Assembly: GCA_049289815.1 (NCBI GenBank)
Contig: JBATMK010000325.1
Coordinates: 848-64,847, forward strand
Source of the DNA: Flavobacteriales bacterium
GTDB taxonomy: Bacteria; Bacteroidota; Bacteroidia; Flavobacteriales_F; PHOS-HE28
Direction: 5' to 3'
Length of the DNA: 64,000 bases
Part shown: positions 7,153 to 20,635 of the stretch, piece by piece
Numbering within the stretch: position 1 is the stretch's first letter
Layout of the letters: each line of letters opens with the position of its first letter
The notes under the pieces: generated by a model
Seen by the model: the letters and a program-made list of their open reading frames with translations, nothing else
Told to the model about the DNA's origin: nothing
Databases searched by the model: none
Made by a program: the position numbers and the translations under genes

Positions 7153-7194
7153 CCGGTGCGGCCCAATGGGCCCATCGTGGCGGAGAACCCCCAG

Positions 7195-9651
7195 ATGGCA
7201 GCAGCGAAGGCCCCCGGCAAGGGAGGCGTCATCGACGTTAACGATCTGCGCTTTTTCCTGCGCATCGTACAGAAGAACTGGTATTTGGTGGTATTGGCCG
7301 TGGCCCTCTCGGCTGTGCTGAGCGCCTTGTACAGCTACAAGCTTCCGGAAGTGCACGGGGCCAGCACGCAGATCCTGTTGAAGGACCGCGAGGTGTTCAA
7401 CTACCAGACCCAGATCTACCAGAACATCGGCTACATAGCCGCCTACGGCGACATCGTGAACCAGAAGCGGGTGCTGACCAGCTACGACATGATCGACAAA
7501 ACGCTGGACAAGCTCGATTTCGACGTGAGCTACTACATCCTGGGCCGGTTGAAGACCACAGAGAAGTACCATGAACTGCCCTTCGAGGTGGATGCCGTAC
7601 CACTGGACAAGAGCCTTTACGAGAAGCCGATCGACGTGAAGATCGTGGATGCCGAAACCTTCACCATCACGTACGATGCGGGTAAGAGCGGCCCGGTGAG
7701 CTACACGTTGCCGTTCGATCGCGATACCAGCGCGGGCAACGACATCCGGTTGAAGGTCCGCCGCATGAAGCATATCACACGCGAGGCCTTGGCCTCCCTG
7801 GCCGATGGCGATTACCAGTTCGTGCTGCACAGCCGCCCATGGCTGGTGAACAAGTACAAGAGCAGCATGGATGTGGAGAACCTGGAGTACACCAGCATCC
7901 TGGAGATCAAGGTGGAGGATGAAAAGCCCGAGCGGGCGAAGTTGTTCCTCGATAGTCTCAGCACGGTGTACATACACTATACGCTGCAGAGCGAATTCGA
8001 TATCAACGACAACACCATGGGTTACATCGACAAACAGCTCGATGAGGTGACCGTGATATTGAACAGCTATGAGGACGACCTACAGAACTACAAGGAGAAC
8101 AAGAACATCCTGGACCTGAGCCGGGAGGAAGAGCGCTATTTCGACCAGCTGGTGAACTTCGACAACAACCGGCGTCAGTACGAGCTGATGATCGAGAGCC
8201 TCAACTCCTTGGAGGATTACGTGCTCAACATCGGCGATGAGGAATTGCTTCCACCAAGCTTCTACATCCTCCAAGGAGACATCTTCCTTACCAGCAGCGT
8301 AAGTGAACTGTACACCATGCAGATGGGCCGCAACCGGATGCTTCAGGATGCAACGGAAGAGAACCAGGCCATCTCCAAGCTCGACGAGACCATCGGCCTC
8401 ACCCGTAACAACCTGCTCACCTACATCATCAACGATCGCAAGGCCATCCAAGAGAAGATCGGTGACGTGAAGACGCAGATCGACGACTACGAAGGCTTGA
8501 TCCGCCGCATACCACAAAGTCAACGCGACATACTCAACATCGAACGCAAGGTCCAGGTGAATGAAAAGCTCTACCTCTTCCTGCTGGAGAAACGTGCCAA
8601 TACGGTGATCGCCAAAGCGGGTATCATCCCCCAGACCAAGGTGATCGAGCGCGCGCGCGGGCTTGGCGTTGTGCGCCCCGACAAATTGGGCATCCTGTAT
8701 TCCTTCATCGTGGGTGGCCTCATCCTGTCGCTCATCGTGGTCTTCATCAGGGTGATGTTCTATGACCGGATCGAGAACGCCGATCAGTTGCGGGCCATGA
8801 CACAGACCCCCGTGTTCGGGGAGATCATCGCCAGCGAGAAGGCCGAGGAGAACTACGTGGTGGTGGACAGCGATCCGAAGTCGGCCATCACCGAGAGCTT
8901 CCGTACGGTCCGCACCAACTTGGAATACCTGCCCCAGACGCCCGCGGGCAGATTGATCATGGTAACCAGTTACCGGCCCAACGAAGGCAAGACGTTCTGC
9001 AGCGTGAACCTGAGCGCGATACTGGCCAAAGCCGGCAAGAAGGTGCTGTTGCTGGAACTCGACCTGCACAAACCCAAAGTGGGAGCCGGGCTGGGCATGA
9101 CCAGCCCGATGGGTATCAGCAACCTGATGGTGGGCAAGTGCACCATCGAGGAAGTGATACTGGCCACGCACATCGAGAATTTCCATGTGATCCTCAGCGG
9201 ACCTACGCCGCCCAATGCGAGCGAGTTGGTGCTCAGCAAGCACATGAATGAGCTTTTCGCTTACGGCCGCGAGCACTACGATTACGTGATGATCGACACC
9301 CCGCCGGTTGGCCTGATCAGCGACGCGTTGGTGATGATGAAGCTCGTGGACGCCACCCTGTTCGTGGTGAACACGCGCTTCGCGAACAAGGACCACCTGA
9401 AGAGCGCCATGGAAGTTCACTTGGCGAACCCGGTTTCCAATTTCGGCTTCATCCTGAACGGGGTGAAAATGAAGAAGAGCAAGTACTACTATAACACCAA
9501 CTACGGCTATGGCTACCGCTATGCCTATGGGTATGGTTATGGTAGCGGCTACGGCTACGGTTATGGATACGGCCGCAAACGCCGCAGCAAGAAGGACGAT
9601 GAAGCCAAGCCGGAGGTTGAGCAGAAACGGAAGCCGGATACCCGCGCGTGA
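7195..9651 (+). CDS. wzc: Polysaccharide co-polymerase / BY-kinase (Wzc-like tyrosine autokinase chain-length determinant)
   Basis: Wzz-like N-terminal TM. A long coiled-coil periplasmic domain. A second TM, then a cytoplasmic P-loop kinase domain (VTSYRPNEGKTFCSVNLS Walker A, DTPP Walker B). The C-terminal tyrosine cluster is YYYNTNYGYGYRYAYGYGYGSGYGYGYGYG. ATG start chosen at 7195; the track ORF begins at a GTG at 7156. Confidence 0.85.
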   Translation: MAAAKAPGKGGVIDVNDLRFFLRIVQKNWYLVVLAVALSAVLSALYSYKLPEVHGASTQILLKDREVFNYQTQIYQNIGYIAAYGDIVNQKRVLTSYDMIDKTLDKLDFDVSYYILGRLKTTEKYHELPFEVDAVPLDKSLYEKPIDVKIVDAETFTITYDAGKSGPVSYTLPFDRDTSAGNDIRLKVRRMKHITREALASLADGDYQFVLHSRPWLVNKYKSSMDVENLEYTSILEIKVEDEKPERAKLFLDSLSTVYIHYTLQSEFDINDNTMGYIDKQLDEVTVILNSYEDDLQNYKENKNILDLSREEERYFDQLVNFDNNRRQYELMIESLNSLEDYVLNIGDEELLPPSFYILQGDIFLTSSVSELYTMQMGRNRMLQDATEENQAISKLDETIGLTRNNLLTYIINDRKAIQEKIGDVKTQIDDYEGLIRRIPQSQRDILNIERKVQVNEKLYLFLLEKRANTVIAKAGIIPQTKVIERARGLGVVRPDKLGILYSFIVGGLILSLIVVFIRVMFYDRIENADQLRAMTQTPVFGEIIASEKAEENYVVVDSDPKSAITESFRTVRTNLEYLPQTPAGRLIMVTSYRPNEGKTFCSVNLSAILAKAGKKVLLLELDLHKPKVGAGLGMTSPMGISNLMVGKCTIEEVILATHIENFHVILSGPTPPNASELVLSKHMNELFAYGREHYDYVMIDTPPVGLISDALVMMKLVDATLFVVNTRFANKDHLKSAMEVHLANPVSNFGFILNGVKMKKSKYYYNTNYGYGYRYAYGYGYGSGYGYGYGYGRKRRSKKDDEAKPEVEQKRKPDTRA
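9484..9570 (+). repeat. Degenerate tandem repeat encoding the (Gly-Tyr)n tail of Wzc
   Basis: tacggctat ggctaccgctat gcctatgggtat ggttatggt ... ggctacggctacggttatggatacggc. About 29 codons, roughly half Tyr. Confidence 0.7.
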
Positions 9652-9670
9652 TCACCATTTCCCTGACCGT

Positions 9671-10534
9671 ATGCCCACCACCGCAGCCGCCGACCGTGAG
9701 ACCCTTATCGGGCCCGACGGGCCTTGGTGGAAATTGGATCTGGCCGAGCTCTGGCGCTACCGCGATCTGGTGGCGTTGTTGGTGCGTCGGGACATCACCG
9801 CCGTATACAAGCAGACGGTCCTCGGTCCACTCTGGCATGTGATCCAGCCCTTGCTGACCTCCTTCATGTTCGCGTTGATCTTCGGGCGCGCCGCGGGGTT
9901 CGCACCCAAAGAGATCCCCGGCATGCTCTTCTACCTGAGCGGACTGGTGCCTTGGTTCTTCTTCGCGAACGTGGTGAACAAGACCAGCAAGACCTTCACG
10001 GCCAACGCGGCGTTGATGGGCAAGGTGTACTTCCCACGGCTCGCAGTGCCCCTGAGCGTGGCCATCAGCAACCTGGCCAGTTTCGGCATCCAATTCCTGG
10101 CCTTCCTCGTGCTGCTGATCAGCTATCACGTGTTCGATCCGGGTTTCACCTGGCATCCTTCACCGGCACTGTTGCTCCTGCCCTTGCTGGTCGTGATCAT
10201 GGGCTTGCTCGGCTTGGGATCCGGTATCCTGATCAGCGCGCTCACCACCAAATACCGCGACCTCAGTTTCCTTGTCGGCTTCGGCGTGCAACTGCTCATG
10301 TACGCGAGCCCCGTCATCTTCCCGCTCTCCCGGTTGCAACAGTTCCCCATGTTGCTCAAGGTGTTCAATGTGAACCCGATGACGAGTGTGATAGAGAGCA
10401 CCCGGGCGGTCTTCTTCGGCCAGGCGATCCCGTGGAACGGGTTGGGTTATACGTGCGTGTTCACGTTGTGCATCCTGATGCTCGGCACGGCGGTCTTCAA
10501 TCGGGTGGAGCGCTCCTTCGCCGATATCGTTTGA
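9671..10534 (+). CDS. wzm: ABC-2 type polysaccharide/O-antigen export permease (Wzm/KpsM/TagG family)
   Basis: 287 aa with six TM segments. ABC-2 signature region LWHVIQPLLTSFMFALIFG. Start refined to the ATG at 9671. Confidence 0.8.
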   Translation: MPTTAAADRETLIGPDGPWWKLDLAELWRYRDLVALLVRRDITAVYKQTVLGPLWHVIQPLLTSFMFALIFGRAAGFAPKEIPGMLFYLSGLVPWFFFANVVNKTSKTFTANAALMGKVYFPRLAVPLSVAISNLASFGIQFLAFLVLLISYHVFDPGFTWHPSPALLLLPLLVVIMGLLGLGSGILISALTTKYRDLSFLVGFGVQLLMYASPVIFPLSRLQQFPMLLKVFNVNPMTSVIESTRAVFFGQAIPWNGLGYTCVFTLCILMLGTAVFNRVERSFADIV

Positions 10535-10537
10535 ACG

Positions 10538-11797
10538 ATGGAAGGCATCGCGATCCGCGTTTCCGATGTGCACAAGCAATACCGTTTGGGCGTGTTCGGC
10601 GGTACCACGCTGGCCGAGGATCTCAAAGCGTGGTGGGCCAAGGTGAACGGCAGGCCCGATCCGCGTGTGCCCATCGGTAAGGAACACATGTCGCAGCGCT
10701 CGGGCGAGTTCTTCCTCGCACTGCGCGGCCTCAGCTTCGACATCAGGAAAGGAGAGATCGTGGGCGTGATCGGTCGCAATGGCGCTGGCAAGAGCACGCT
10801 GTTGAAGTTGATGTCGCGCATCACCTCACCAACGTCAGGCACCATCCGGATCACGGGCCGCACGAGCAGTTTGTTGGAGGTGGGAACGGGCTTCAATCCT
10901 GAACTGACCGGTCGCGAGAACATCTTCCTCAACGGCGCCATCCTGGGCATGCGCAAGCACGAGATCGATGCCCGGCTGCAGGCGATCATCAGCTTCAGCG
11001 GCATCGAGCACCATATCGACTCACCGGTGAAACGTTACAGCAGCGGCATGCGCGTACGCCTTGGTTTCGCGGTGGCCGCACATTTGGAGCCGGAAGTGCT
11101 CATCATCGACGAAGTGTTGGCCGTGGGCGACACCGAATTCCAGCGCAAATGCCTAGGCAAGATGAAGGACGTGGCCAACAGCGGCCGCACTATTCTCTTC
11201 GTAAGTCATAACATGACTTCCGTGAGGAGTTTGTGCAATCGCGTGATCTGGTTGCAGGAGGGCAGGGTGACCATGGACGGCCCTGCGGAGGATGTGGTGA
11301 ACGCCTACTTGCGCACCTACACCAACAACAACGATACGGTGGAATGGAGTGAAGCGGAGGCACCGGGCAATGAGCGTGTGCGGTTGCGCCGTGTGGCCAT
11401 CGAACGCGACGACGATGGAGCCTTGCTCACTTGGCGGACACCTTTCCGCGTCCGTGTCGGTTTCGATAACATCGGCATGAATGATGATGGATTGAACGTG
11501 GGCTTGCTCGTTTTCAACAGCGACGACATCCTCGTTTTCTCCACCAGCCTGCGGGAAGGGAGCACTTTCCGTGTGAAGCCCGGAACCAACAGCGTTTGGT
11601 GCGAGGTGCCTGCGGATCTGTTGAACATCGGTGACTACCGCATCACGGTGATGTTTTTCTACAATGCCAAGCGCCTTATGCGGCATGATGATACCGTGGC
11701 ATTCGCAGTCCACGACACCGAGCGCGAAGGTGCTTGGTACGGCAAGCGCAAGGGCGTAGTGATACCGATTCTGAAATGGGGCGCGGAGGGCGGTTGA
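10538..11797 (+). CDS. wzt: ABC transporter ATP-binding protein with a C-terminal glycan-binding domain (Wzt/TagH-like)
   Basis: Walker A GRNGAGKST, signature YSSGMRVRLGFAVA, Walker B LIIDEVLAVGD. An additional C-terminal domain of about 150 aa resembles the Wzt_C O-antigen-terminus-binding beta-sandwich. Confidence 0.85.
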   Translation: MEGIAIRVSDVHKQYRLGVFGGTTLAEDLKAWWAKVNGRPDPRVPIGKEHMSQRSGEFFLALRGLSFDIRKGEIVGVIGRNGAGKSTLLKLMSRITSPTSGTIRITGRTSSLLEVGTGFNPELTGRENIFLNGAILGMRKHEIDARLQAIISFSGIEHHIDSPVKRYSSGMRVRLGFAVAAHLEPEVLIIDEVLAVGDTEFQRKCLGKMKDVANSGRTILFVSHNMTSVRSLCNRVIWLQEGRVTMDGPAEDVVNAYLRTYTNNNDTVEWSEAEAPGNERVRLRRVAIERDDDGALLTWRTPFRVRVGFDNIGMNDDGLNVGLLVFNSDDILVFSTSLREGSTFRVKPGTNSVWCEVPADLLNIGDYRITVMFFYNAKRLMRHDDTVAFAVHDTEREGAWYGKRKGVVIPILKWGAEGG

Positions 11798-11841
11798 ACT
11801 TCCTTGGTCGGTTCACCGGACCGTTCCTTCCGAGCGTGGTG

Positions 11842-11876
11842 CCGTCCTTCCTGAGCGTCGCCGCGTGGAAGGACGG
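11842..11876 (+). terminator. Perfect 10-bp inverted repeat (candidate terminator or regulatory stem-loop) after wzt
   Basis: ccgtccttcc-(15 nt)-ggaaggacgg, 45 nt downstream of the wzt stop. There is no U-tract. Confidence 0.35.
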
Positions 11877-11993
11877 TAGTTCAGCGATCTTCAACATGCT
11901 GGCGCACCAACCCCAAGTTCTCCTACTGATGCCTATGGTGGCCTTGCGTCACGACGGCGTTCTCAGTCTTCGTCCTAACTGGATCACACGACT

Positions 11994-12809
11994 TTGCCCC
12001 ACGCCATGATCGGGTGGCTCGACCGCTTCCGGCGACACATGCGCCCGGCGTTCCTCATTATCGGAGCGCAGAAAGCCGGCACGTCGTCGCTGTTCAAGAT
12101 GTTCGCTGCACACCAACGCGTCGTAGCACCTGTGACGAAGGAACAGCATTTCTTCGACCGCGGGGACCGCTATGCACGGGGTTTCAGCCACTATATCAGA
12201 CAGTTCCCCCTGGCATCCGGCAACACGGGTCGCATCACCTTCGAAGCAACACCGAACTACCTCTTCGAGGAAGCGTGCGCGCGGCGTATCCATCATCACC
12301 TGCCTGAGGTGAAGTTGATAGCGGTGCTGCGCAATCCGGTGAGCCGGGCTTACTCCGCATGGAACATGTACCGCCATTTCGCAGGCCATCCGGTCCACGG
12401 CGAATGGCACGATCCGCGTACATTCGAACAGGCCGTGGAGGACGAACTGGCCGGAAGAACCACCGCGCGTGCCCATCTTTACCTGGAGCGGGGACAGTAC
12501 GCGCGTCTCTTGGGCCGTTACTTCGATCTGTTCGGTCGCGATCGTTTGCTCGTGCTCCGGCATGATCGGCTCGATCTGGAGCCCGCCGCCGTCATGGACG
12601 AATGCTGCCGCTTCCTCGGCTTGGAGCTTTTCGCCGGGAATCCCGCACAACTACTGGTGCGGGACAACGTGCGTCCTTATCCCGCCGCGATGGATCCCGC
12701 GCTCCACGATCGCCTGGTAGCGCATTTCGCGCCGCACATGCAGGAACTTGAACAGTTATTAGGAACAGGCTGGGATCTGCTCCAAGCCCGTACCGCACGG
12801 TCGAAATAG
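11994..12809 (+). CDS. Sulfotransferase family protein (PAPS-dependent carbohydrate sulfotransferase)
   Basis: The 5'-PSB loop LIIGAQKAGTSSL and the 3'-PB region RNPVSRAYSAW, like eukaryotic-type heparan-sulfate sulfotransferase domains. The start may be the internal M at 12039. Confidence 0.7.
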   Translation: MPHAMIGWLDRFRRHMRPAFLIIGAQKAGTSSLFKMFAAHQRVVAPVTKEQHFFDRGDRYARGFSHYIRQFPLASGNTGRITFEATPNYLFEEACARRIHHHLPEVKLIAVLRNPVSRAYSAWNMYRHFAGHPVHGEWHDPRTFEQAVEDELAGRTTARAHLYLERGQYARLLGRYFDLFGRDRLLVLRHDRLDLEPAAVMDECCRFLGLELFAGNPAQLLVRDNVRPYPAAMDPALHDRLVAHFAPHMQELEQLLGTGWDLLQARTARSK

Positions 12810-12867
12810 CTTACTTTGGATCTCCCTGAAGCCCCGTTGACGTGGGTCGCATTGGTGAACATCAGAC

Positions 12868-13551
12868 ATGTCGAATATTGGATCCGAGGGTTACCTCACA
12901 TCGATGGACAAAACCGGAAAAGAGGCGGACCCGGCCAGCACTGCCTATTGGGAGGAGTATTACAAGGCGAACCCTCACCCGTTCAATCCTTCTGCCTTCG
13001 CCCTGGAGGTGGCCCGCTGGCTGGGAACATCCGGGACGATGATCGAGCTGGGTTGTGGCAATGGACGCGATGCGGTCTTCCTCAGCCAACGGATCCAGGG
13101 AACCCTGCTCGCTATCGACCAATGCGTTCACGAGGTGGAGCGGCTCAACTTGGAACAGGCGCATGAACGGTTGCATTTCCTGGCCGCTGATTTCTCGACC
13201 TATCGACCCACGGATCCGATCCAATACGCGTATTCACGCTGGACGATGCATGCCATCGATGAAGAGGCCGAGGATCGTACTTTGGACTGGCTGACACGTT
13301 CCGTTCGCAACACGGGCATATTCTTCGTTGAGGCCAGGAGCGTACGGGACGACCTTTACGGCAAGGGTGAGCACGTCGGCGGGCATGCTTACTTGACCGA
13401 CCATTACCGCCGTTTCATGGATCCTGAGGTGTTCACGCAGAAGCTAAGGACGCGCGGATGGACTATTCTGGATTCCGTTGAATCCCGTGGATTCGCTGTT
13501 CATCAGGATGATGACCCCGTCATCGTGCGTGTGATCGCACAGAAGCCTTGA
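12868..13551 (+). CDS. Class I SAM-dependent methyltransferase
   Basis: Motif I IELGCGNGRDAVFL; Rossmann-fold MTase spacing. Confidence 0.65.
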   Translation: MSNIGSEGYLTSMDKTGKEADPASTAYWEEYYKANPHPFNPSAFALEVARWLGTSGTMIELGCGNGRDAVFLSQRIQGTLLAIDQCVHEVERLNLEQAHERLHFLAADFSTYRPTDPIQYAYSRWTMHAIDEEAEDRTLDWLTRSVRNTGIFFVEARSVRDDLYGKGEHVGGHAYLTDHYRRFMDPEVFTQKLRTRGWTILDSVESRGFAVHQDDDPVIVRVIAQKP

Positions 13552-13561
13552 TGTCTCAGGG

Positions 13562-14740
13562 ATGTTGCGCGCTCTAAGGGAACGTGCCCGTGCTCTTCAG
13601 ACCAGGATCCGGGGGCTGAGGTCACGGGTGATCGATGGTCTTGCCCTCTACCGATGTGCTTGGGAGCAAAGGCGGGCACCTTCGCGCTGCATGGCGGTCT
13701 TCGCGCCGCGGAAAGCGCAGCGAAAATTCATCGAGGGCACGATCGCCCATCTCGAACGACAGGGGGTCAAGGTTCACTGGTTCACCGGACCGGAGTTCAT
13801 CGGTGATTACAAGGCCGCCTTGAGTTCGCGTCGTGTGTATCCCTATCATCTCTGTGCCCATATCCCGTACAGGGCGATCCTCACACCCGCCACGCATATC
13901 CCGACCAACAAGTACAAACATCCGCAAGCACAGGTCATCCATGTCCCGCATTCCATGGTCAGCCTGCATACGATCTTCACCAGTGCCACTTTCATTGGGT
14001 TTGACCATGTGTTTTGCTGCGGCCCGCACCACGTTAAGGAGATCGAGGCCATCTTCAGGCAAAATGGCCGAGCGGGGCGGATCGCGCGCACCGGCTATGA
14101 AGTGATCGACCGTCTGGCCCAACTGGCCCCCAAGGAGAAGAACGCGGGCATTCGACCATGTGTTCTGATAGCCCCAACTTGGGGAGAGAGCAGCCTCCTT
14201 TACCGCTTCGGGCGGGAACTCGTGGATCGGTTGATCAAGCATTACGACGTGATCCTCCGTCCACACCCGTGGCGGATAGAACAGCTATCCGACCTGCTAA
14301 GTGCGCTCAAAAGCGACTATGCCTCGAATCCCCGTTTCCGCTATGACGATGCCGTTGATTCCAAGGGATCGATGGACACGGCCGATCTGATGATCTCCGA
14401 CTATTCGGGGGCCGCCTTCGAGTTTGCCTTGGCTTATCTGCGCCCTGTGATCTTCATTGATGGTCCTAGAAAGAATGCGCACCTGCAATTCAGGGAGATC
14501 CTCGATGAGGAAGGTGTTGAGGTCAGGTGCAGGAATGTGATCGGTGTTGTCGTCCAGGACCTGAACGAGTTGGAGAACGCAATTCCCGTTTCGCTCGATG
14601 CGCGCGGGTTCTGGTCCGACAAGCTGCGCAAGGCAAGGAGCGAGTTGCTATTCAACTTCGGCCATTGCGCAGAACACGCCACAGCCGAGATCATCAAGGT
14701 ATTGGATGTCGGGGCCGTAAGCGAGCAGCGCACAACATGA
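13562..14740 (+). CDS. CDP-glycerol glycerophosphotransferase family protein (TagB/TagF-like)
   Basis: The C-terminal ADLMISDYSGAAFEFA motif is characteristic of TagF-type polyol-phosphate transferases. The N-terminal half is GT-B-like. Confidence 0.5.
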   Translation: MLRALRERARALQTRIRGLRSRVIDGLALYRCAWEQRRAPSRCMAVFAPRKAQRKFIEGTIAHLERQGVKVHWFTGPEFIGDYKAALSSRRVYPYHLCAHIPYRAILTPATHIPTNKYKHPQAQVIHVPHSMVSLHTIFTSATFIGFDHVFCCGPHHVKEIEAIFRQNGRAGRIARTGYEVIDRLAQLAPKEKNAGIRPCVLIAPTWGESSLLYRFGRELVDRLIKHYDVILRPHPWRIEQLSDLLSALKSDYASNPRFRYDDAVDSKGSMDTADLMISDYSGAAFEFALAYLRPVIFIDGPRKNAHLQFREILDEEGVEVRCRNVIGVVVQDLNELENAIPVSLDARGFWSDKLRKARSELLFNFGHCAEHATAEIIKVLDVGAVSEQRTT

Positions 14741-14839
14741 TGCTTGTGGGAAGGGTCGTGAACAAGTGGGGAGGTTCGTCGAGACCGTCCTTGTGCGCTT
14801 GCCCGCTATGGGCGACATTTGGGCTCTACCATTTGAACA

Positions 14840-15982
14840 ATGAACAGTGTGGAACGCGCCCAAGACGCACCGCTAGCGCACCTCGACGATCATCCGATGG
14901 TGGACGAAGAACCCATCCACGTTACGCGCACTGTGCTGCCAGAGAAGGCGGTCTACCAGCGGCTGATGGATCATGCATGGGACGACCGTCGCATGACCAA
15001 CAACGGCCCGCTGGTGGTGGAGCTTGAGAACGTCCTGCGCGACTACCTCGCCGTTCCGCACTTGGCGCTCGTGAGCAATGGTACGCTGGCCTTGCAGATC
15101 GCGATCCGCGCGTTGGGGCTGAAAGGAAAGATCATCACCACGCCGTTCAGCTACGTGGCTACGGCCAGTGCGATCCTCTGGGAAGGCTGCGAGCCCGTGT
15201 TCGCCGACATCGACCCCGAGACCTGCTGCATCGATCCGGCGCGCATCGAGTCGGCCATTGTGCCGGGCGTCAGCGCCATCATGGCCACGCACGTCTATGG
15301 CATACCGTGCGACGTTGCGGCGATCGAAGCGATCGCACGAATGCATGGCCTTAAAGTGATCTACGATGGTGCACATGCATTTGGTGCGATGTACCGCGGG
15401 CGCTGTCTGTCCGCTTACGGCGATGCATGCACGTTGAGCCTGCATGCCACGAAGCTTTACCACACGATCGAGGGCGGTGCGGTGATCACACACGAGGCCC
15501 GCCATGACGCCGATGTGCGCCTGCTCCGCAGCTTTGGCCACATCCGTGACGAGCACTTCGCGCTTGGGATCAATGCGAAGCTGAGTGAGCCGCACGCGGC
15601 GATGGGTCTGGCGCTGTTCCCGGAGGTGGATGGCTTCATAAAGCAGCGCAGCACTATTTCGGCCTGGTACGACGAGCGTATCGCTGATCTCCCGCTACGC
15701 AAGCCGCAGATCCCATCGGAGACCACCTTCAACTTTGGCTATTATCCGGTCTTCTTCGACTCGGAGGCCGAGCGCGAGCGTGCGATCCAGGTGATGCAGG
15801 CCGCCTGTGTGTTCCCGCGCCGGTACTTCTTCCCTTCACTGGACCGGCTTCCTTACGTGCGTTCCGCCGAAATGCCCGTATCCATCAAGGCCGCGGCGAC
15901 TTCACTCTGCCTTCCGCTTTATCCTGGGCTTACGCAAGCGCAAGTGGATCGTGTGGTGAGCGCATTGCGCCACACTTGGTGA
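14840..15982 (+). CDS. DegT/DnrJ/EryC1/StrS family PLP-dependent sugar aminotransferase
   Basis: Typical N-terminal RLMDHAWDD...NGPLVVELE...LVSNGTLAL and a central PLP-lysine region consistent with the family. Confidence 0.8.
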   Translation: MNSVERAQDAPLAHLDDHPMVDEEPIHVTRTVLPEKAVYQRLMDHAWDDRRMTNNGPLVVELENVLRDYLAVPHLALVSNGTLALQIAIRALGLKGKIITTPFSYVATASAILWEGCEPVFADIDPETCCIDPARIESAIVPGVSAIMATHVYGIPCDVAAIEAIARMHGLKVIYDGAHAFGAMYRGRCLSAYGDACTLSLHATKLYHTIEGGAVITHEARHDADVRLLRSFGHIRDEHFALGINAKLSEPHAAMGLALFPEVDGFIKQRSTISAWYDERIADLPLRKPQIPSETTFNFGYYPVFFDSEAERERAIQVMQAACVFPRRYFFPSLDRLPYVRSAEMPVSIKAAATSLCLPLYPGLTQAQVDRVVSALRHTW

Positions 15983-15988
15983 CCAGGG

Positions 15989-16789
15989 CTATGGCGCGAA
16001 CCGCTCGAGCCGCGTTCCCTTCAGATTGGCCAGTACTTCTTCGATGATGCCGGGGTCAAGCATCTCGCGCCAGCGATCGATCACGCTCTTGTTCTTGTAT
16101 ACCGCATAGTAGCTGTCGGTGTGGACCTGTCCGCTTTCCTGAAGGAACCGACGCGTCTGTTCCTCGAAGGTGATGTGGCAGAAGTCGAAAAGCCCGGGGA
16201 TGGACTTCATCGGATCATTCACGAGATCCTCGTACTGTACGATCCGGAAGCGATCGGGGTATTTATCCTGCAGGTCCAGGTAGAGGTGTGTCACCTCCTT
16301 CCATTTGTAATAGCCGAAGTAGTCCTCGTTGCCGATGTTCTTGCAGTTGCCGAAACGCCATTCCTTGCGGATGTCGGATCCCAGCGGGAATTCCTTCGCG
16401 TTCCGGCTCCAGCTATCGAGTACTCCACAGGGGTGACGAACGATACCGATGCCGGTCATCGAAGGTACGCGGCGCATCATGGGTTCCAGCACACTTTGGT
16501 AGCGGTTCTCCTTGAAAACCAGCGTGCGCGGAACGGCGAGCTTCTCGAAACGAGGGTATTCGCCGCTCGCCTGCTTGTCGGCCTGTGTCAGGAACGGTGT
16601 ATCGGCTGTGACCATCTCTTCGAAGAACCGCTCATATTCCTCACGCGTGCTGTTTTCGTTCACCCGCCCCTTGAACTCGTAAGAGAACAGCGGCTGGAAA
16701 CGGAACACCACCTCCGGCGAACTGTTGAACACCTGGCCGAGCCAGCTGGTACCGCTGCGCGCCACACCGAACAAGGCCACGGTCTTCAT
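15989..16789 (-). CDS. Sulfotransferase family protein (second copy)
   Basis: 5'-PSB loop LFGVARSGTSWLGQV. Size and motif spacing match PAPS sulfotransferases. Encoded on the opposite strand from the flanking operon. Confidence 0.65.
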   Translation of the reverse strand: MKTVALFGVARSGTSWLGQVFNSSPEVVFRFQPLFSYEFKGRVNENSTREEYERFFEEMVTADTPFLTQADKQASGEYPRFEKLAVPRTLVFKENRYQSVLEPMMRRVPSMTGIGIVRHPCGVLDSWSRNAKEFPLGSDIRKEWRFGNCKNIGNEDYFGYYKWKEVTHLYLDLQDKYPDRFRIVQYEDLVNDPMKSIPGLFDFCHITFEEQTRRFLQESGQVHTDSYYAVYKNKSVIDRWREMLDPGIIEEVLANLKGTRLERFAP

Positions 16790-17478
16790 CGGGTCACAAG
16801 CAGGTCGAAGCGGAAATGAGCACAGATCAGCTCGGGATCCTGCGCCAGCACTTCCGTGCGGGCAAAGCCGCTAGAGGCGCAGAGCGGCTGCAGCCATTCC
16901 CCGTCGAACCAGGTTCCTATCACATCGCGGCCGGCGATCAGGTTGTCGAAGTACAATGCCTGCCGCTCCGGTGTGTTGTAGAACGCCCAAAGCCGCGACC
17001 GGTCGGGGATGTCGCCGACGAACAACAGCCCACCGGGACGCAGCCAGCGTGCCATGCGCCGGAACAGCGCGATGCACTCCGCATGATCGATGTACTGTAG
17101 CCCGGCGTACAGCAGGATCCGGGAGAACGCGCCTTCGGGAAAATCGGCGGTGCGCATATCGACGCATTGGGTGGTGACATTGGGAAGTCCACGATGCTGC
17201 AGGGTGTGCAACAGGTCAGGAGAAATATCGACGGCCGTCACTGATCGGCATTTGGGCGCAAAATGCGCGGTGAAAAGGCCGTTGCCACAGCAGAGATCCA
17301 GCACGTCATCATCAGCGCCCACAGGATACACCTTGTCCAGCGTCTGAAGCGTGAAGCGCCAGCGTTGTTCGGTGATCGGCTCCTTGTTGAGCGTGCGCAA
17401 CACTTGCGTCTGCTCATCAGCGCCGCGGGTGCCACGTCCGTGGTCACGCCAGAATTCAAGCCAGCGATCGTCGCTCAT
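16786..17478 (-). CDS. Class I SAM-dependent methyltransferase
   Basis: Motif I VLDLCCGNGLFTAHFA. 4-nt overlap with the downstream sulfotransferase gene. Confidence 0.65.
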   Translation of the reverse strand: MSDDRWLEFWRDHGRGTRGADEQTQVLRTLNKEPITEQRWRFTLQTLDKVYPVGADDDVLDLCCGNGLFTAHFAPKCRSVTAVDISPDLLHTLQHRGLPNVTTQCVDMRTADFPEGAFSRILLYAGLQYIDHAECIALFRRMARWLRPGGLLFVGDIPDRSRLWAFYNTPERQALYFDNLIAGRDVIGTWFDGEWLQPLCASSGFARTEVLAQDPELICAHFRFDLLVTR

Positions 17479-18428
17479 CGGGGGTTCTGCAAGTGCTCAA
17501 CGAAGCGGCGAAGATCGTCAACGGTGTAGCGGTGATCCACCGGCAGGGGCAGTAATTCAGTGCTCAGGCGTTTCTCCCAGGCATAGCCTTCGATACCGCG
17601 TTCCAACTCATCGGGCCAAAGTTGCGGGGCGAAGAGTCCCTTCTCATACATCGCTGGCCGGTCGATCGGCACGGCAGGGAGATAGGGATAACAAAAAGGC
17701 ACGTCTGCGGGATCGAACCGGTACCGGAACGTGTTCGACGCACCAAGCTGTTCGTGGAAGTACCGGAAGTTCCTCCGGCGCGCGCTTTTCACAGCTTCGT
17801 GATCGACACCGCGCAGCAATCCCTCGCTGATCGCGCTGATGCGCTGGACGTCGCCAGTGAGCGATCGCTCATATGAGGTGTAGGCACGGTACGCTTCCGC
17901 CTGTCGGCCGAGCAGGCGCAGTAGACCGTGGTCGAGCGAGACGGCCGCAAAGCGTGCAGCATCGATCGCGACCGGTACCGGGGCAAAGAGAAATGCACCA
18001 TCCGGTACGCCGAAGTATTTCCGTGCTGAGGTGAATGACCAGTGACCGGCATGGCCGCCACGATAGAAGGCGTGGGTGTCATCGATGATCAACCGGTCGC
18101 TGTAGTGTGTCTTCAGCCGTTCAGTGATCGCACCACATACCCCGTAGTAGTCGATCCATAAGAAGTACTCGCCGCTTGCAAGATCCGGAAGTGAAACGGG
18201 GTGGAGATCTTCATCCAGCGCATAGAAACGCGTCCCCACGTTCGATCGCCGGAAAGGCTCCAACGAGGCGTCGCAGGTGTGGTAGGGCACATGCACGAGC
18301 TTCGGCTTCAGGTGCTGGAGCAATACTGTCAGGCAGGCACGGCCGGTACACAGTGCGACCGCCCCGGGGTGCGGGCTCCCGCCACCTCGAGGGAGCTCAA
18401 GTTCGAAGAATCCGCCGATCGGTTTCAT
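17475..18428 (-). CDS. DegT/WecE-like PLP-dependent aminotransferase (divergent)
   Basis: Weak similarity in fold and motifs (SFTSARKYFGVPDGA resembles the SF..K PLP-Lys region). Start refined to MKPIGGFFELE at 18428. Confidence 0.45.
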   Translation of the reverse strand: MKPIGGFFELELPRGGGSPHPGAVALCTGRACLTVLLQHLKPKLVHVPYHTCDASLEPFRRSNVGTRFYALDEDLHPVSLPDLASGEYFLWIDYYGVCGAITERLKTHYSDRLIIDDTHAFYRGGHAGHWSFTSARKYFGVPDGAFLFAPVPVAIDAARFAAVSLDHGLLRLLGRQAEAYRAYTSYERSLTGDVQRISAISEGLLRGVDHEAVKSARRRNFRYFHEQLGASNTFRYRFDPADVPFCYPYLPAVPIDRPAMYEKGLFAPQLWPDELERGIEGYAWEKRLSTELLPLPVDHRYTVDDLRRFVEHLQNPR

Positions 18429-18585
18429 GTGTGCGATCCGTTCACCCCCGCCTGCGTTGCCCAAGACCTTGAGCCCGGGTAATGGGGAGTGTTTTCGATG
18501 AGCACAGCCAAGGCAGGAGCACTTCCTGGTCCCATGGAGCAACATCGGCGTGCATAAAGCGCGGGATCTAGGGCCTGGTGCTGTA

Positions 18586-19356
18586 TCATTCGCTCACAAG
18601 CCGATGCTGTTGTAGCATGTCCCGGATCGCGGGAGGAGCGTTGAACATCATCACATCGATGATGGACAGGCCCGGCTCGAAGGTATTGGTTCGCTGCTCG
18701 TACGGTGGTAGTTCCTGCTCCAGATAGAGCAGCTTCACGCCTGCCTGCCGGAAGCGTTCCAAGTCGAAGATCCCGCGGCCTCCCGGCGGGTTCACGTAAG
18801 CGCCGGCACCGAGCGAACGGCTGATGTGCAGCGCCCAGTCGCCGGGCTCACGCGCTTCAGTATGGGCCAAGGCCATGTCGGAATACACTTCATGATCGAA
18901 GGCAAGACCCAGATAAGAACAAGTCCGTTCCAAACAGTTTGTATTGAAGGCCACGAGCGATTGGCTCTCGGGGCGAAGGCATTCTTCCAGCAACGCCAGC
19001 ACCGCATCGTAGTGCGGGGCGTGCACCGCTTTGTAGTGATCCAGGTGCCGGATGATCCGATCGAAACGGTCGGGTTCGGATGGCAGGTGAATGTCCTTGA
19101 TCAGCGTGCTGCGATCATGCGGCTCCACGGTCACTCCGATATATTTCCAGCCACCGCCTTTCTTCAACACGCGGTTGCGGTTCATCCAGCCCTTGCGGAT
19201 GTACTGCACGGGATCGAAAACGATCCAGCGATCGGTGCAGGCGATCAGGCTGAAGTACCCGAGGTAAGGGAAGAAATACGGCTGCATGATGCCCAGCCGT
19301 ACGCCGGTGTAAACGGATCGGTCGAGGCGGGAGGGAGAGGATGCGGAGGCGCTCAT
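18586..19356 (-). CDS. WbqC-like family protein
   Basis: The N-terminal MQPYFFPYLGYFSLI motif is diagnostic of WbqC-family proteins found in O-antigen loci. Start uncertain (19356 or 19287). Confidence 0.6.
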   Translation of the reverse strand: MSASASSPSRLDRSVYTGVRLGIMQPYFFPYLGYFSLIACTDRWIVFDPVQYIRKGWMNRNRVLKKGGGWKYIGVTVEPHDRSTLIKDIHLPSEPDRFDRIIRHLDHYKAVHAPHYDAVLALLEECLRPESQSLVAFNTNCLERTCSYLGLAFDHEVYSDMALAHTEAREPGDWALHISRSLGAGAYVNPPGGRGIFDLERFRQAGVKLLYLEQELPPYEQRTNTFEPGLSIIDVMMFNAPPAIRDMLQQHRLVSE

Positions 19357-19434
19357 TTTCGAGTGGGCCAAAGATGCGCGATCGCCCCGTGGACCCCCGA
19401 CTATCTTCGCCGCCCTTCCATCCGGACGTGCACC

Positions 19435-20433
19435 ATGGCCAGCGCTCCCGACCCCGCAGTACCGGCGGTTCCCGTGGTTTCCATTTCGGTCACCGCCTAC
19501 CAGCACGCAGCATTTTTGGCCGAATGCCTGGACAGCATCCTGGCCCAGCGCACTTCCTTTCCCTATGAGATCCTGTTGGGCGAGGACGGCTCAACCGACG
19601 GGACCCGGGAGATCGCCATTCGTTACGCGGAAGCGCATCCTGACAAGATCCGACTGTTCCTCCGCGACCGGTCGCAAGTAATCATGATCGACGGGCGAGC
19701 CACTGGTCGCGGGAATTTCCTCAACAACTTCCAACACGCACGAGGCCGCTACCTCTGCCACCTCGATGGTGATGATTTTTGGAACGATCCAGAGCGCCTG
19801 CGGATCATGGTAGAGCGCATGGAAGCGGAGTCTGATCTGTCCATGGCGTTCCATAATGCATGGAATCTATTCCCGAATGGCCGCCAGGTGGATTACGTGC
19901 GGCAATGGACCGGTACGGGCCCGCTCAAAGTGCGGTACAGCGGCGATGACCTGATCACCCAGAACTGGATCCCTACCGGAGGCCTCATCTGGCGCATCGG
20001 CGGTGAACGGGATGTGCCGGAGGTGTGGCGCACCACGATCGCAGGTGATTGGGTGGTCAACCTCTTCTTTGCGCAGCGCGGCCCCATCGGCTGCATCGAC
20101 AAGCATATGAGCGTACGGCGCGTTCACGGTGGCGGCCTGATCAGCGGCATGGATCCGGTGCGTAAGATGGAGTTGAACCTGCGCATGCTGGGCATCGTCG
20201 ATCGGTTCACGCACGCGAAGCACAGCCAGCCTATCGCGAAGCGCCGCGTTGAGATCCTCTCAGAGGCATTGCGCGCGTGTGTGCAGAACGGGCGCACCGC
20301 CGATGCGCGTGGCATCTGGAAACAACTGAGCGGCTCACCCAGCTACAGTGCCACACTGCGAGAGCGCATGCGCTGGATGGTGCTGGTGCGCTGGCCACGG
20401 CTGGCTCGCTGGATCCATCGCGCGCGCTCTTGA
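19435..20433 (+). CDS. Glycosyltransferase family 2
   Basis: VSISVTAYQHAAFLAECLDSILAQ...YEILLGEDGSTDGT (GT-A DXD region). Start refined; the track ORF 18826..20433 is a 5' over-extension across the divergent intergenic region and WbqC. Confidence 0.75.
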   Translation: MASAPDPAVPAVPVVSISVTAYQHAAFLAECLDSILAQRTSFPYEILLGEDGSTDGTREIAIRYAEAHPDKIRLFLRDRSQVIMIDGRATGRGNFLNNFQHARGRYLCHLDGDDFWNDPERLRIMVERMEAESDLSMAFHNAWNLFPNGRQVDYVRQWTGTGPLKVRYSGDDLITQNWIPTGGLIWRIGGERDVPEVWRTTIAGDWVVNLFFAQRGPIGCIDKHMSVRRVHGGGLISGMDPVRKMELNLRMLGIVDRFTHAKHSQPIAKRRVEILSEALRACVQNGRTADARGIWKQLSGSPSYSATLRERMRWMVLVRWPRLARWIHRARS

Positions 20434-20635
20434 GCGGCGACCCATCTTTGCCCGGTGCCAGCCGCGCCCAAGGAACTCCTGTCCCTGCTGCTCGCTGTGG
20501 ACATCGTGGATCCGTTCTGGATGCGCAACTCGATCCCCCGCGAGCTGGCCAGGAATTTCGTGATCGCTTACCTGCCGGGTTTGGCTGGATGGGTGGCGCG
20601 TAAACGCATGGGGTAGTGCGCCCATCCGATCACCT

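Follow-up and report, generated by a model that had tools for sequence, protein, structure and literature searches.

Export operon and the sulfotransferase ST1

The window, by which we mean the whole 64-kb stretch of DNA analysed, stems from an uncultured, high-GC, Flavobacteriales-type bacterium. Its export genes lie in one operon-like run on the plus strand. The first of them encodes a PCP-2a-type co-polymerase/BY-kinase (7156..9651, beginning at 7195 in the public gene call; Pfam Wzz, GNVR and AAA_31); more than 30 related loci have a homologue of 58-84% identity ahead of Wzm/Wzt. It is followed by Wzm, the ABC-2 permease of the polysaccharide exporter (9671..10534; Pfam ABC2_membrane E=3e-19), which shows eleven hydrophobicity peaks and has Wzm/RfbD and KpsM as best NCBIfam matches, both under the cut-off, and by the ABC ATPase Wzt (10538..11797; 419 amino acids; ABC_tran E=1.6e-24). 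Judged from these genes, the polysaccharide locus uses the ABC-transporter pathway. A C-terminal extension of Wzt (~160 amino acids, roughly nucleotides 11290-11794) looks like a carbohydrate-binding domain. A profile of 35 such Wzt C-terminal domains matched the CBD of the A. aeolicus Wzt (6o14/8dky) at E=0.0025, and 9 of the 35 matched Pfam Wzt_C (best E=2.7e-8); searched singly, the domain from the window gave no significant match.

Directly downstream, a PAPS-type sulfotransferase gene, here called ST1, was found at 12006..12809 of the plus strand. The public gene call (P0001, 100% identical) also uses the ATG at 12006 and yields 267 amino acids; an alternative TTG start lies upstream at 11994. 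ST1 matched Pfam Sulfotransfer_1 (E=4e-16, 59.6 bits versus a cut-off of 22) and secondarily Sulfotransfer_3 (E=4e-12). It carries the 5'-PSB QKAGTSSL and the 3'-PB LRNPVSRAYSAW, both of which had been noticed in the first-pass annotation, the latter as a 3'-PB-like region. By sequence, its PDB matches were 3rnl (2e-23), NDST1 (1e-21) and 3-OST-1 (3e-17). A search with the AlphaFold2 model (pLDDT 94.2) in Foldseek gave solely sulfotransferases as top PDB matches (3rnl at 4e-16), with TM 0.72-0.77 and 24-28% identity toward the heparan-sulfate 3-OSTs and NDST1, so that the predicted likeness to these enzymes was borne out. Residues K23, G25, T26, K45, E46, R109, R114 and S117 were invariant in 52 homologues. 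The predicted active site, K23, E46-x-H48-F-F-D51 and R109...S117, resembles that of heparan-sulfate 3-OSTs, and we take E-x-H-F-F-D to be the catalytic Glu/His/Asp set of 3-O-sulfotransferases. His48 and Asp51 vary across the family, being kept in 31/52 and 30/52 homologues. With a pI of 9.5 and no transmembrane segment predicted, ST1 seems to be a basic, soluble protein without membrane anchor.

Three further plus-strand genes follow. They encode the SAM-dependent methyltransferase MT1 (12868..13551; Pfam Methyltransf_25/23/11), found at the same position only in L007 among the relatives examined, a TagF-like protein of the CDP-glycerol glycerophosphotransferase family (13562..14740, start 13691 in the public gene call; Glyphos_transf E=1.6e-7, 31.1 bits versus a cut-off of 22.1) and a DegT/DnrJ/EryC1-family sugar aminotransferase (14840..15982; Pfam E=6e-83). 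The best NCBIfam match of the latter, PLP_DesI (DesI-type 4-aminotransferase), reached 252.6 bits, under the cut-off of 650.

The surroundings of ST1 are conserved. Counting homologues 40-70% identical to ST1, 33 of 41 related Flavobacteriales loci had the end of wzt no more than 400 bp upstream; of 39 loci, 18 had the start of a DegT homologue at most 300 bp downstream and 34 had it within 3.5 kb. Tight ST1-DegT pairs were found in many loci, some of them outside Flavobacteriales. Within the clade the slot after wzt holds sulfotransferases of at least two unrelated families, and in close relatives ST1 was only 45% identical although Wzm and Wzt were 81-93% identical.

The minus-strand cassette and ST2

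A second PAPS-type sulfotransferase, ST2 (15989..16789, 266 amino acids), is the final gene of a minus-strand module of four genes. The module starts with a WbqC-family gene (18586..19356; Pfam E=1e-58), followed by a gene of unlabelled family (17475..18428, 317 amino acids) and the SAM-dependent methyltransferase MT2 (16786..17478; Methyltransf_25 E=1e-19). Stop/start overlaps of 4 bp each, at 17475-17478 and, between MT2 and ST2, at 16786-16789, suggest co-expression. For the 17475..18428 product no match was obtained in Pfam, NCBIfam and PDB sequence searches. It has an invariant S-x-R-K...G..DG motif and aligned co-linearly with the window's DegT over 271 columns in hhalign, weakly (Prob 9.8%, E=0.0033), and is possibly a divergent DegT-like PLP-fold protein.

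The order WbqC-(DegT')-unknown-methyltransferase-sulfotransferase was kept in all nine contexts examined, which include Shewanella halifaxensis, Vreelandella utahensis, a Flavobacteriales MAG, a Pontiella/Kiritimatiellales MAG, one Pseudomonadota MAG and three other contigs. An MT2 homologue lay directly upstream of the ST2 homologue in 9/9, and WbqC in or beside the cassette in 8/9, the ninth (L174) ending at the contig edge. The cassette spans several phyla and was found in O-antigen loci, capsule loci and one flagellin glycosylation island. In S. halifaxensis the gene directly upstream of it is a bona fide cysN, and in L090 the whole cassette comes after a Wzt-like ATPase. Most other copies have the DegT' gene, which the window's copy lacks. 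The four-gene module is real, as first described, and conserved, but its description as inserted did not hold up: its GC content equals that of the flanks and a related MAG (L091) has the same convergent arrangement, so that it is no recent insertion in the window.

ST2 matched Sulfotransfer_3 (E=6e-12, 46.7 bits versus a cut-off of 27) and Sulfotransfer_1 (E=8e-10). As for ST1, these Pfam scores are far above chance level. Besides the ARSGTSWLG motif already recorded, it contains a 3'-PB-like VRHPCGVLDSWS that had been overlooked. With the AlphaFold2 model (pLDDT 92.4), all top PDB matches in Foldseek were sulfotransferases (TPST2 9e-10, CurM ST 4e-8), retinol dehydratase and LGS1 being among the fold matches; by sequence, only the CurM and olefin-synthase (OLS) sulfotransferases were found in the PDB. 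Residues R11, G13, R118, P120 and S126 were invariant in 53 homologues, and homologues across phyla were 52-69% identical. Tyrosylprotein and CurM-type sulfotransferases are thus nearest to ST2, and ST1 and ST2 are not paralogues. No transmembrane segment was predicted, and ST2 looks like a soluble cytoplasmic protein; the lack of such segments in both enzymes fits access to cytosolic PAPS. Pfam scores above cut-offs, intact PAPS motifs and AlphaFold models together confirm the initial assignment of two PAPS-type sulfotransferases.

Divergent from the cassette, a GT2 glycosyltransferase gene (19435..20433, plus strand; Glycos_transf_2 and gene call), with homologues in most related loci, opens a plus-strand run of glycosyltransferases, methyltransferases and acyltransferases to ~41 kb. 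Further methyltransferases lie at 20636-21340 and 38190-39053 and a hexapeptide acetyltransferase at 31615-32208, and the locus holds two MBOAT acyltransferases. The kinds of neighbour listed at the outset, sugar aminotransferase, methyltransferases and acetyltransferase, were all found. No cysD, cysN or cysC for PAPS synthesis and no UDP-sugar dehydrogenase, uronic-acid, GAG-synthase-type or heparosan-type synthesis gene was detected within the 64-kb window.

Possible acceptors of ST1 and ST2

As both genes stand in operon-like arrangements with sugar-modifying genes, sulfation of the locus glycan is the natural prediction. The best reading of the gene content is a sulfated, methylated, amino-sugar-containing polymer, and a sulfated sugar polymer is a likely product of the locus. 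We put at about 0.65 the probability that ST1 and ST2 are functional, soluble, cytoplasmic PAPS-dependent sulfotransferases of unrelated families that decorate this glycan. Beyond the fold, cofactor motifs, gene order and conserved context established above, we infer the acceptors, the timing of sulfation and the persistence of sulfate in the exported polymer. Before the chain is exported, ST1 would O-sulfate one of its sugars on the cytoplasmic side, while the chain is still linked to undecaprenyl diphosphate; the amino-deoxy sugar formed with the help of DegT, or an adjacent residue, may be the target. The ST2 cassette, which moves between different glycoconjugate systems, would make a single defined amino-sugar derivative, methylated as well as sulfated and probably built on a nucleotide-linked or lipid-linked monosaccharide. 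The high identity of ST2 across phyla versus the 45% of ST1 in close relatives is in keeping with an ST2 that acts on one small, constant substrate and an ST1 whose polymer acceptor varies.

Prokaryotic sulfotransferases acting on lipid-linked or polysaccharide glycans have been described before (PMC8205485, PMC11641403, PMC11980604). Several points count against the proposal. In one paper, PAPS-synthesis genes within the cluster are regarded as a hallmark of sulfated-polysaccharide loci (PMC11641403), and they are not in the window. The window's cassette is without DegT', and the nearest solved relatives of ST2 are not carbohydrate enzymes. In A. salmonicida a sulfotransferase-domain gene follows wzt, and the published O-antigen repeat is without sulfate (PMC4483657).

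The last observation would be expected if ST1 or the sulfated and methylated sugar of the ST2 cassette modified only the non-reducing terminal residue as a sub-stoichiometric cap, stopping growth and giving the signal that the Wzt C-domain has to bind for export to begin, in the manner of methyl, methyl-phosphate or Kdo caps elsewhere. We consider this unlikely, although known cap-binding domains are homologues of the Wzt C-terminal domain family and transporters with such a domain need a cap (PMC9445017). The filling of the slot after wzt by unrelated sulfotransferases, and the Wzt-like ATPase before the cassette in L090, also point this way. Moreover, the divergence of the Wzt C-domain and ST1 co-varied when the ATPase domain was controlled for (partial r=0.47, p=0.001; DegT 0.19). 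Physical linkage can explain this as well, since Wzm also gave r=0.36, and close relatives have C-domains 78% or 61% identical with sulfotransferases of only 45%. In a set of ~55 remoter Wzt homologues that share this C-terminal domain, picked without regard to sulfotransferases, only 2 had an ST1-like gene downstream. A sulfate cap is not known to have been described, ST1 is without a coiled-coil or ruler domain like that of WbdD, and the four methyltransferases could give a conventional methyl cap.

For ST2, the sulfate might instead serve as a leaving group for later elimination or replacement, perhaps by the PLP-like proteins of the cassette, and be absent from the finished sugar. The CurM and olefin-synthase enzymes sulfate a hydroxyl to promote elimination, retinol dehydratase and LGS1 likewise have sulfate as leaving group, and one or two PLP-type or PLP-like proteins accompany ST2 in the cassette. 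We nevertheless rate this as quite improbable. The similarities are remote (TM ~0.5-0.6, 15-19% identity), the top fold matches, tyrosylprotein sulfotransferases, make stable esters, the PLP assignment of the 17475..18428 protein is weak, and ST2 ends the cassette with no obvious processing enzyme downstream.

Conversion by ST1 of the free amine from the adjacent DegT into a sulfamate, as by the NDST domain on glucosamine, appears very unlikely. ST1 matched the NDST1 N-sulfotransferase domain nearly as well as the 3-OSTs (E=1e-21; TM 0.74), yet NDST aligns with E-I-Q where the window's ST1 has E-x-H of the presumed 3-O-sulfotransferase set. Two genes separate ST1 from DegT in the window, against the tight pair of many other loci, and the variability of His48 and Asp51 also speaks against N-sulfation. 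In its favour, N-linked sulfate was measured chemically in granular-sludge EPS (PMC10483923), and some related MAGs bear activated-sludge-type isolate names.

Least probable of all is that either enzyme, or both, act on a lipid, small molecule or protein tyrosine as mere neighbours of the glycan genes: the sequence of a sulfotransferase does not reveal its acceptor, ST2 has its best structural counterparts in tyrosylprotein sulfotransferases and the A. salmonicida equivalent has no known O-antigen product, but across dozens of loci in several phyla the sulfotransferase genes keep their place among sugar aminotransferases, WbqC, glycosyltransferases and Wzm/Wzt, and the overlaps in the cassette suggest co-expression.

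Comparison with known systems

The sulfated-polysaccharide prediction of the first-pass annotation thus fits the enzymes and their context, while its rarity and its glycosaminoglycan-like character were not supported. ST1 relatives were found at 552 places in GTDB species representatives with two peptide patterns only, 14,200 cluster representatives came up at E<=1e-10 when the search was exhaustive, and ST2 gave 749 matches. By these counts, ST1- and ST2-type genes are common in bacteria, as families of hundreds to thousands, and several sulfated loci are published. Likeness of the polymer to animal glycosaminoglycans is not supported, because enzyme likeness to GAG sulfotransferases does not reveal the acceptor and the window showed neither a UDP-sugar dehydrogenase nor a GAG-synthase-type gene. 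The heparan-sulfate 3-OSTs, the NDST domain and 3RNL from Alicyclobacillus share with ST1 the fold (TM 0.69-0.77, 24-30% identity), the K-x-G-T-S/T 5'-PSB, the R...S 3'-PB and the K-E-x-H-F-F-D catalytic stretch. Unlike the heparan-sulfate enzymes, ST1 is apparently soluble, bacterial and part of an ABC-transporter polysaccharide operon. Tyrosylprotein and CurM/olefin-synthase sulfotransferases, the nearest solved structures for ST2, have the same Sulfotransfer_3-type variant of the 5'-PSB, R-S-G-T/S; at 15-20% identity and TM ~0.5-0.6, ST2 differs in being a stand-alone enzyme encoded in a sugar-tailoring cassette, whereas those are Golgi enzymes or PKS domains.

Cap-dependent Wzm/Wzt O-antigen export, as in E. 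coli O9a (WbdD), K. pneumoniae O12 (WbbB) and A. aeolicus (methyl cap), resembles the window in a Wzt C-terminal domain homologous to the cap-binding domain and in small tailoring enzymes beside wzt. The known caps are methyl, methyl-phosphate and Kdo, no sulfate cap being known, and neither a WbdD-like kinase nor a coiled-coil ruler or GT99 domain turned up in the window. The A. salmonicida O-antigen cluster, also an ABC-transporter locus, has its sulfotransferase-domain ORF19 directly after a long Wzt of 438 amino acids (PMC4483657); it belongs to a gammaproteobacterium, and ORF19, likened to ST1 by description only, has 216 amino acids and is followed by WbbB. Two different sulfotransferases for different sugars of one glycan are described in PMC11980604 for the Halobacterium salinarum N-glycan, a comparison by description only with an archaeal protein N-glycosylation system whose product is a tetrasaccharide, not a bacterial polymer.

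The published sulfated-polysaccharide loci, Synechocystis synechan (xss), Vibrio sp. KMM 8419 CPS, Cobetia marina CPS and Pontiella EPS (PMC8205485, PMC11641403, PMC11766843, PMC7356697), have in common with the window sulfotransferase genes amid glycosyltransferases and export genes. The Vibrio locus also uses an ABC transporter and, unlike the window, has its own cysNDC PAPS genes. Compared with these loci, the window has Wzm/Wzt together with a PCP-2a kinase, and its Wzt may bear a carbohydrate-binding domain.

Two sulfotransferases in a polysaccharide export locus

Both reading frames that the first-pass annotation had described as sulfotransferases were recovered. ST1 (12006-12809, plus strand) encodes 267 aa; a TTG at 11994 is a possible upstream start, and the public gene call of P0001, a protein identical to ST1, uses the ATG at 12006. 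ST2 (15989-16789, minus strand) encodes 266 aa. Using Pfam, ST1 matched Sulfotransfer_1 (PF00685; 4e-16, 59.6 bits, gathering cut-off 22) and Sulfotransfer_3 (PF13469; 4e-12, 47.3 bits, gathering cut-off 27), and ST2 matched Sulfotransfer_3 (6e-12, 46.7 bits, cut-off 27) and Sulfotransfer_1 (8e-10, 38.9 bits, cut-off 22), while NCBIfam held no specific model for either protein. The translations contain QKAGTSSL and LRNPVSRAYSAW in ST1, and ARSGTSWLG and VRHPCGVLDSWS in ST2. The 5'-phosphosulfate-binding loop of ST1 is Q22-K23-A-G25-T26-S27, with the pattern (K/R)-x-G-(T/S)-(T/S), and its 3'-phosphate-binding motif is R109-N-P-V-S-R114-A-Y-S117; K23, G25, T26, K45, E46, R109, P111, R114 and S117 were invariant in all 52 homologues aligned. 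The corresponding elements of ST2 are A10-R11-S12-G13-T14-S15 and R118-H-P120...S126-W127, with R11, G13, R118, P120 and S126 invariant in 53 homologues. E46 is the candidate catalytic base of ST1 and lines up with K-E-x-H-F-F in 3RNL and the 3-OSTs. It opens the stretch E46-Q-H48-F-F-D51, which we take to be the Glu/His/Asp arrangement of the 3-O-sulfotransferases (His48 in 31 and Asp51 in 30 of the 52 homologues). Candidate bases of ST2 are E38 (kept in 49 of 53 homologues), E94 and E133.

Searching the PDB by sequence, ST1 matched 3RNL (2e-23), the N-sulfotransferase domain of NDST1 (1e-21) and HS 3-OST-1 (3e-17), and ST2 gave weak matches to the sulfotransferase domains of an olefin synthase (2e-4) and of CurM (1e-3). 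AlphaFold predicted both structures with high pLDDT (94.2 for ST1, from the alignment of 52 homologues; 92.4 for ST2). In Foldseek comparisons with the PDB, the ST1 model was closest to 3RNL (4e-16), followed by 3-OST isoforms and NDST1 (TM 0.72-0.77, 24-28% identity), and the ST2 model to TPST2 (9e-10), followed by the CurM and OLS sulfotransferase domains, SULTs and 3-OST (TM ~0.5-0.6). All top matches of ST1 were sulfotransferases, and the top of the ST2 list held sulfotransferases exclusively. Since both predicted models match sulfotransferase folds, the original assignment withstood the structural comparison. Judged by motifs and models, ST1 and ST2 are members of the PAPS-dependent sulfotransferase superfamily with predicted transfer activity. 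They are not duplicated paralogues, their pairwise similarity being not significant (E=0.13). As neither contains a hydrophobic segment, both are expected in the cytoplasm, where PAPS is found.

Upstream of ST1 and on the same strand lie genes for a PCP-2a-type co-polymerase/tyrosine kinase (7156-9651; Pfam and public gene call), the ABC-2 permease Wzm (9671-10534; Pfam ABC2_membrane, E=3e-19) and the 419-aa ABC ATPase Wzt (10538-11797; Pfam ABC_tran, E=1.6e-24). In NCBIfam, the permease/ATPase pair scored highest with models of the Wzm/Wzt, KpsM and TagH types, without reaching any of the equivalog cut-offs. Tyrosine-kinase PCP-2a co-polymerases usually partner with Wzy-dependent systems; here, a PCP-2a with a tyrosine-kinase-type ATPase domain and a Wzm/Wzt exporter share one operon-like run, a pairing retained by over 30 related loci. 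The window showed no outer-membrane exporter of the Wza/OPX type. Between ST1 and the DegT aminotransferase gene (14840-15982, plus strand), a methyltransferase and a TagF-like protein of the glycerophosphotransferase family are encoded (12868-14740, plus strand). Among the relatives examined, this insertion was shared with one locus alone (L007), and it may point to an additional decoration with glycerol phosphate or methyl groups. Beyond the minus-strand block that contains ST2, Pfam identified a GT2, a further methyltransferase, about 12 GT2/GT4 glycosyltransferases, two MBOATs, a hexapeptide acetyltransferase, a UDP-GlcNAc 2-epimerase and several epimerases/dehydratases. The glycosyltransferase run reaches ~41 kb, and more envelope genes follow. 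Scanning 9000-21500 for sigma-70 promoters, promoter-like sites were no commoner than in shuffled controls (the consensus used is not that of Bacteroidota), and the terminator-like sites checked in the same interval all fell within coding regions.

Several further observations concern the flanks. Divergent from and 5' of the PCP/Wzm/Wzt operon, an exosortase XrtX-like protein (6200-6748, minus strand; NCBIfam NF046081, 156 bits, slightly below the cut-off of 170) adjoins an ORF resembling the XrtX-associated membrane protein (5745-6311, minus strand). The gene order SHMT-exosortase-PCP-Wzm-Wzt recurs in a related Flavobacteriales MAG (L091) and on the contig of another public protein, P0004. 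Two CotH-kinase-family proteins (45007-46494 and 50355-52859), an O-antigen ligase- or Wzy_C-like protein (46501-47871) and a second MBOAT (47959-49383), all on the plus strand, are possible further members of this envelope-glycan region. A 603-aa ORF (1718-3529, minus strand) matches a reductive-dehalogenase (RDH) subfamily model (E=2e-35) and also QueG, both below cut-offs, and Pfam reported no family for it. C-terminal sorting domains of type IX secretion (Por_Secre_tail, CHU_C) occur in three proteins, at 43646-44641 and 54880-55707 (both minus strand) and at 57937-60105 (plus strand), and support a Bacteroidota-type host despite the GC content of 60%. Together with the closest genome matches, they point to an uncultured organism of ~60% GC with relatives labelled "Flavobacteriales bacterium"; the contig is also present in two ENA metagenome assemblies (ERZ28613422, ERZ15185498).

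The best-supported reading, to which we assign a probability of about 0.65, is a PAPS-dependent sulfation of the locus glycan in the cytoplasm before export by Wzm/Wzt. The acceptor of ST1 would be the polymer or a lipid-linked oligosaccharide, ST2 would work inside a sugar-tailoring pathway, and the glycan sulfated at this cytoplasmic stage would then leave through Wzm/Wzt. Pfam scans found no member of the ATP-sulfurylase, CysN-type GTPase or APS-kinase families (cysD/cysN/cysC) among the sizeable ORFs of the window. The proposal of a sulfated glycan stands on the identity of the sulfotransferases and on their glycan setting, but its wording as "glycosaminoglycan-like" is not supported. ST1 is indeed homologous to HS 3-OST/NDST, and the label has this enzyme ancestry alone behind it: Pfam scans of all large ORFs of the window recovered the glycosyltransferases, epimerases/dehydratases and UDP-GlcNAc 2-epimerase but no UDPG_MGDP_dh dehydrogenase or GAG-synthase family, i.e., no genes for a uronic-acid/GAG backbone.

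A sulfotransferase slot beside wzt

For the genomic context of ST1, the best 80 of 552 confirmed matches, collected with two peptide patterns, were chosen and their loci were searched with the window proteins. Most of these loci carry PCP and Wzm 5' of Wzt and variable glycosyltransferases 3'. Homologues 40-70% identical to ST1, nearly all from Flavobacteriales/Bacteroidota MAGs, were preceded by the end of wzt within 400 bp in 33 of 41 cases and followed by the start of DegT within 300 bp in 18 of 39 and within 3.5 kb in 34 of 39. At 29-40% identity, the respective values were 5/29, 6/33 and 13/33. In two loci (L018, L023) Wzt and Wzm are 81-87% and 92-93% identical to those of the window, with an ST1 homologue of 45% identity. 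In L003-L005 and in L091, wzt is followed by a sulfotransferase of a third family (314-315 aa, GAPRSGTxW loop), essentially unrelated to ST1; the L003 copy (5094-6038) stands in tandem with an ST1-like gene, the L091 copy (12914-13861) takes the place of such a gene, and the two copies are 43% identical to each other. Diverged ST1 homologues and a third family beside wzt point to a "sulfotransferase slot" that is conserved and lies on the border of the variable region.

A second sample was drawn with the full-length Wzt alignment as query and comprised 80 metagenome loci with 41-59% identity among the matches listed, the closest relatives not included. A homologous C-terminal domain was present in ~55 of these 80 loci. 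Among these listed matches an ST1-like gene was found downstream in 2 of the ~55, compared to ~14 with DegT directly downstream, several of them with WbqC. Consequently, the broader partner of this type of Wzt is an amino-sugar pathway, and the sulfotransferase next to wzt is a clade-specific addition, not a general Wzt-sulfotransferase link.

The C-terminal part of Wzt itself (residues ~255-419) gave no significant Pfam match, and a homologue search with the last 167 aa alone found nothing. A profile built from the homologous C-terminal domains of 35 related loci matched the carbohydrate-binding domain of Aquifex aeolicus Wzt (6O14/8DKY) with E=0.0025. Taken singly, 9 of these 35 domains matched Pfam Wzt_C (best 2.7e-8). 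On these alignments the Wzt C-terminus is probably, though not provably, a carbohydrate-binding domain. Domains of the 6O14/8DKY type read a terminal cap consisting of methyl, methyl-phosphate or Kdo (PMC9445017). Candidate chain-terminating enzymes in the locus are four methyltransferases, the two sulfotransferases and the TagF-like protein. Comparing identities over 40 loci by a partial Mantel test, with ATPase-domain identity controlled, the Wzt C-domain co-varied with ST1 (r=0.47, p=0.001), Wzm (r=0.36) and DegT (r=0.19). The co-variation with ST1 fits functional coupling, but no better than it fits genes that are physically linked and share recombination breakpoints. A strict coupling is not established, as linkage confounds the co-variation and the Wzt-based sample, among the matches listed, rarely has a sulfotransferase.

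These data bear on a different role for the sulfate. Sulfate, or the methylated and sulfated amino sugar that the ST2 cassette would produce, could form a new non-reducing-end cap which ends chain growth and serves as the ligand read by the Wzt C-domain before export. Such a cap would account for the unrelated sulfotransferase families that occupy the slot beside wzt in this Flavobacteriales clade, and for the O-antigen repeat unit of Aeromonas salmonicida, in which no sulfate was seen. The rarity of a sulfotransferase 3' of Wzt (2 of ~55 among the matches listed) speaks against it, and we consider it unlikely. If true, it would add a new chemical signal at the export checkpoint of an ABC transporter.

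The minus-strand cassette of ST2

The proposed minus-strand block of four genes was confirmed by Pfam and gene call. It consists of ST2, a methyltransferase (16786-17478), a 317-aa protein without family (17475-18428) and WbqC (18586-19356). The notion that this module had been inserted did not hold up: its GC content (0.596-0.597) equals that of the flanks and the same arrangement is repeated in L091, which rules out a recent horizontal insertion. In other genomes the cassette runs in the order WbqC, a short DegT-like protein (DegT', 310-320 aa), a protein without Pfam match (290-329 aa), methyltransferase (~230 aa) and sulfotransferase (~266-286 aa), and the ST2 homologue was its final gene in all 9 genomic contexts inspected. 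The cassette is complete in L086-L088, L090, L091, L172 and L173 and partial in L174. DegT', elsewhere located between WbqC and the family-less protein, is missing from L089 and from the window, which has a 158-bp gap at this position.

ST2 homologues show an unusually high conservation (52-69% identity) across several phyla, with hosts in Flavobacteriales, Pontiella/Kiritimatiellales, Pirellulaceae, Planctomycetota and Chromatiaceae as well as Vreelandella utahensis and Shewanella halifaxensis. The surroundings of the cassette differ widely. It occurs with a Wzt-like ATPase and DegT (L090), with a Wzx flippase, GT2 and DegT (L089, L172, L173) and, in L091, within a Flavobacteriales locus syntenic with that of the window. 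In V. utahensis (L088, 4188-18523), it is part of an apparent flagellin glycosylation island with rmlA/rmlB-like genes, DegT and an HMW1C-like glycosyltransferase, followed by fliC, flaG, fliD and fliS. From this island, a flagellin bearing a sugar both methylated and sulfated is predicted; a literature search returned no bacterial example of it. In S. halifaxensis (L086 and L087, 5138-10819), a near-identical cassette region was found on two contigs, flanked by IS/transposase and integrase genes. WbqC is immediately preceded there by a bona fide cysN (690 bits, cut-off 590), which connects the cassette with sulfate activation.

Two cassette proteins resist annotation. The family-less protein had no Pfam, NCBIfam or PDB sequence match, alone or as a profile; it contains the invariant motif S-x-R-K...G..DG, and its hhalign alignment with DegT was co-linear yet weak (Prob 9.8%). 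It may be a divergent PLP-fold enzyme. For WbqC, there was no sequence relative in the PDB and the literature search on its function gave nothing informative. Being portable between unrelated glycoconjugate systems and highly conserved in sequence, the cassette suggests one defined modified sugar as its product, with a monosaccharide linked to a nucleotide or a lipid as its probable substrate.

The sulfation by ST2 might alternatively be transient, with sulfate serving as a leaving group. The CurM and OLS sulfotransferases are relatives of ST2, which is in line with this idea; we nevertheless judge it distinctly improbable. That ST1 is an N-sulfotransferase for a DegT-derived amine, a proposal to be seen next to its NDST1 match and its 3-O-type residues, is very doubtful. 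Acceptors other than a glycan for one or both enzymes are scarcely to be expected in this glycan setting.

Known sulfated polysaccharide loci

Cytoplasmic sulfation of the locus glycan, the preferred reading, is a sound prediction at the annotation level and no surprise. Bacterial sulfated polysaccharides had been called uncommon in the first-pass annotation, a view at odds with the several published loci and with two large enzyme families, ST1 alone yielding 32,961 cluster representatives at E<=1e-3, of which 14,200 pass E<=1e-10 and 232 pass E<=1e-30. Many members of both families already carry the NCBI label "sulfotransferase". Polysaccharide loci with sulfotransferases are known for synechan, the CPS of Vibrio sp. 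KMM 8419, Cobetia and Pontiella (PMC8205485, PMC11641403, PMC11766843, PMC7356697). Because such loci are established and both families are large, the locus is not a novel kind. What is mildly new are two uncharacterised conserved arrangements recognised here. One is wzt-sulfotransferase-DegT, from a Flavobacteriales clade without cultured members; the other is the WbqC-PLP-like-methyltransferase-sulfotransferase cassette, which spans several phyla. The latter is a defined, portable target for enzymology and sulfated-sugar engineering.

Comparing the window with these systems, similarities and differences became visible. The cluster of Vibrio sp. KMM 8419 has its own PAPS-synthesis genes, whereas that of the window is without cysD/cysN/cysC. 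Two sulfotransferases acting on one glycan are described for Halobacterium (PMC11980604). In A. salmonicida a gene with a sulfotransferase domain follows a long Wzt, as in the window, but the published O-antigen repeat is without sulfate (PMC4483657), which calls for caution in reading a sulfated polymer from this gene order. Finally, sulfated glycoconjugates have been chemically measured in environmental biofilms, e.g., granular sludge, with producers and enzymes largely unknown (PMC10483923). Several MAGs with related loci bear isolate names that suggest activated sludge, lakes and soil, and the locus and both arrangements provide concrete candidate genes for sulfated surface polymers of uncultured Bacteroidota.
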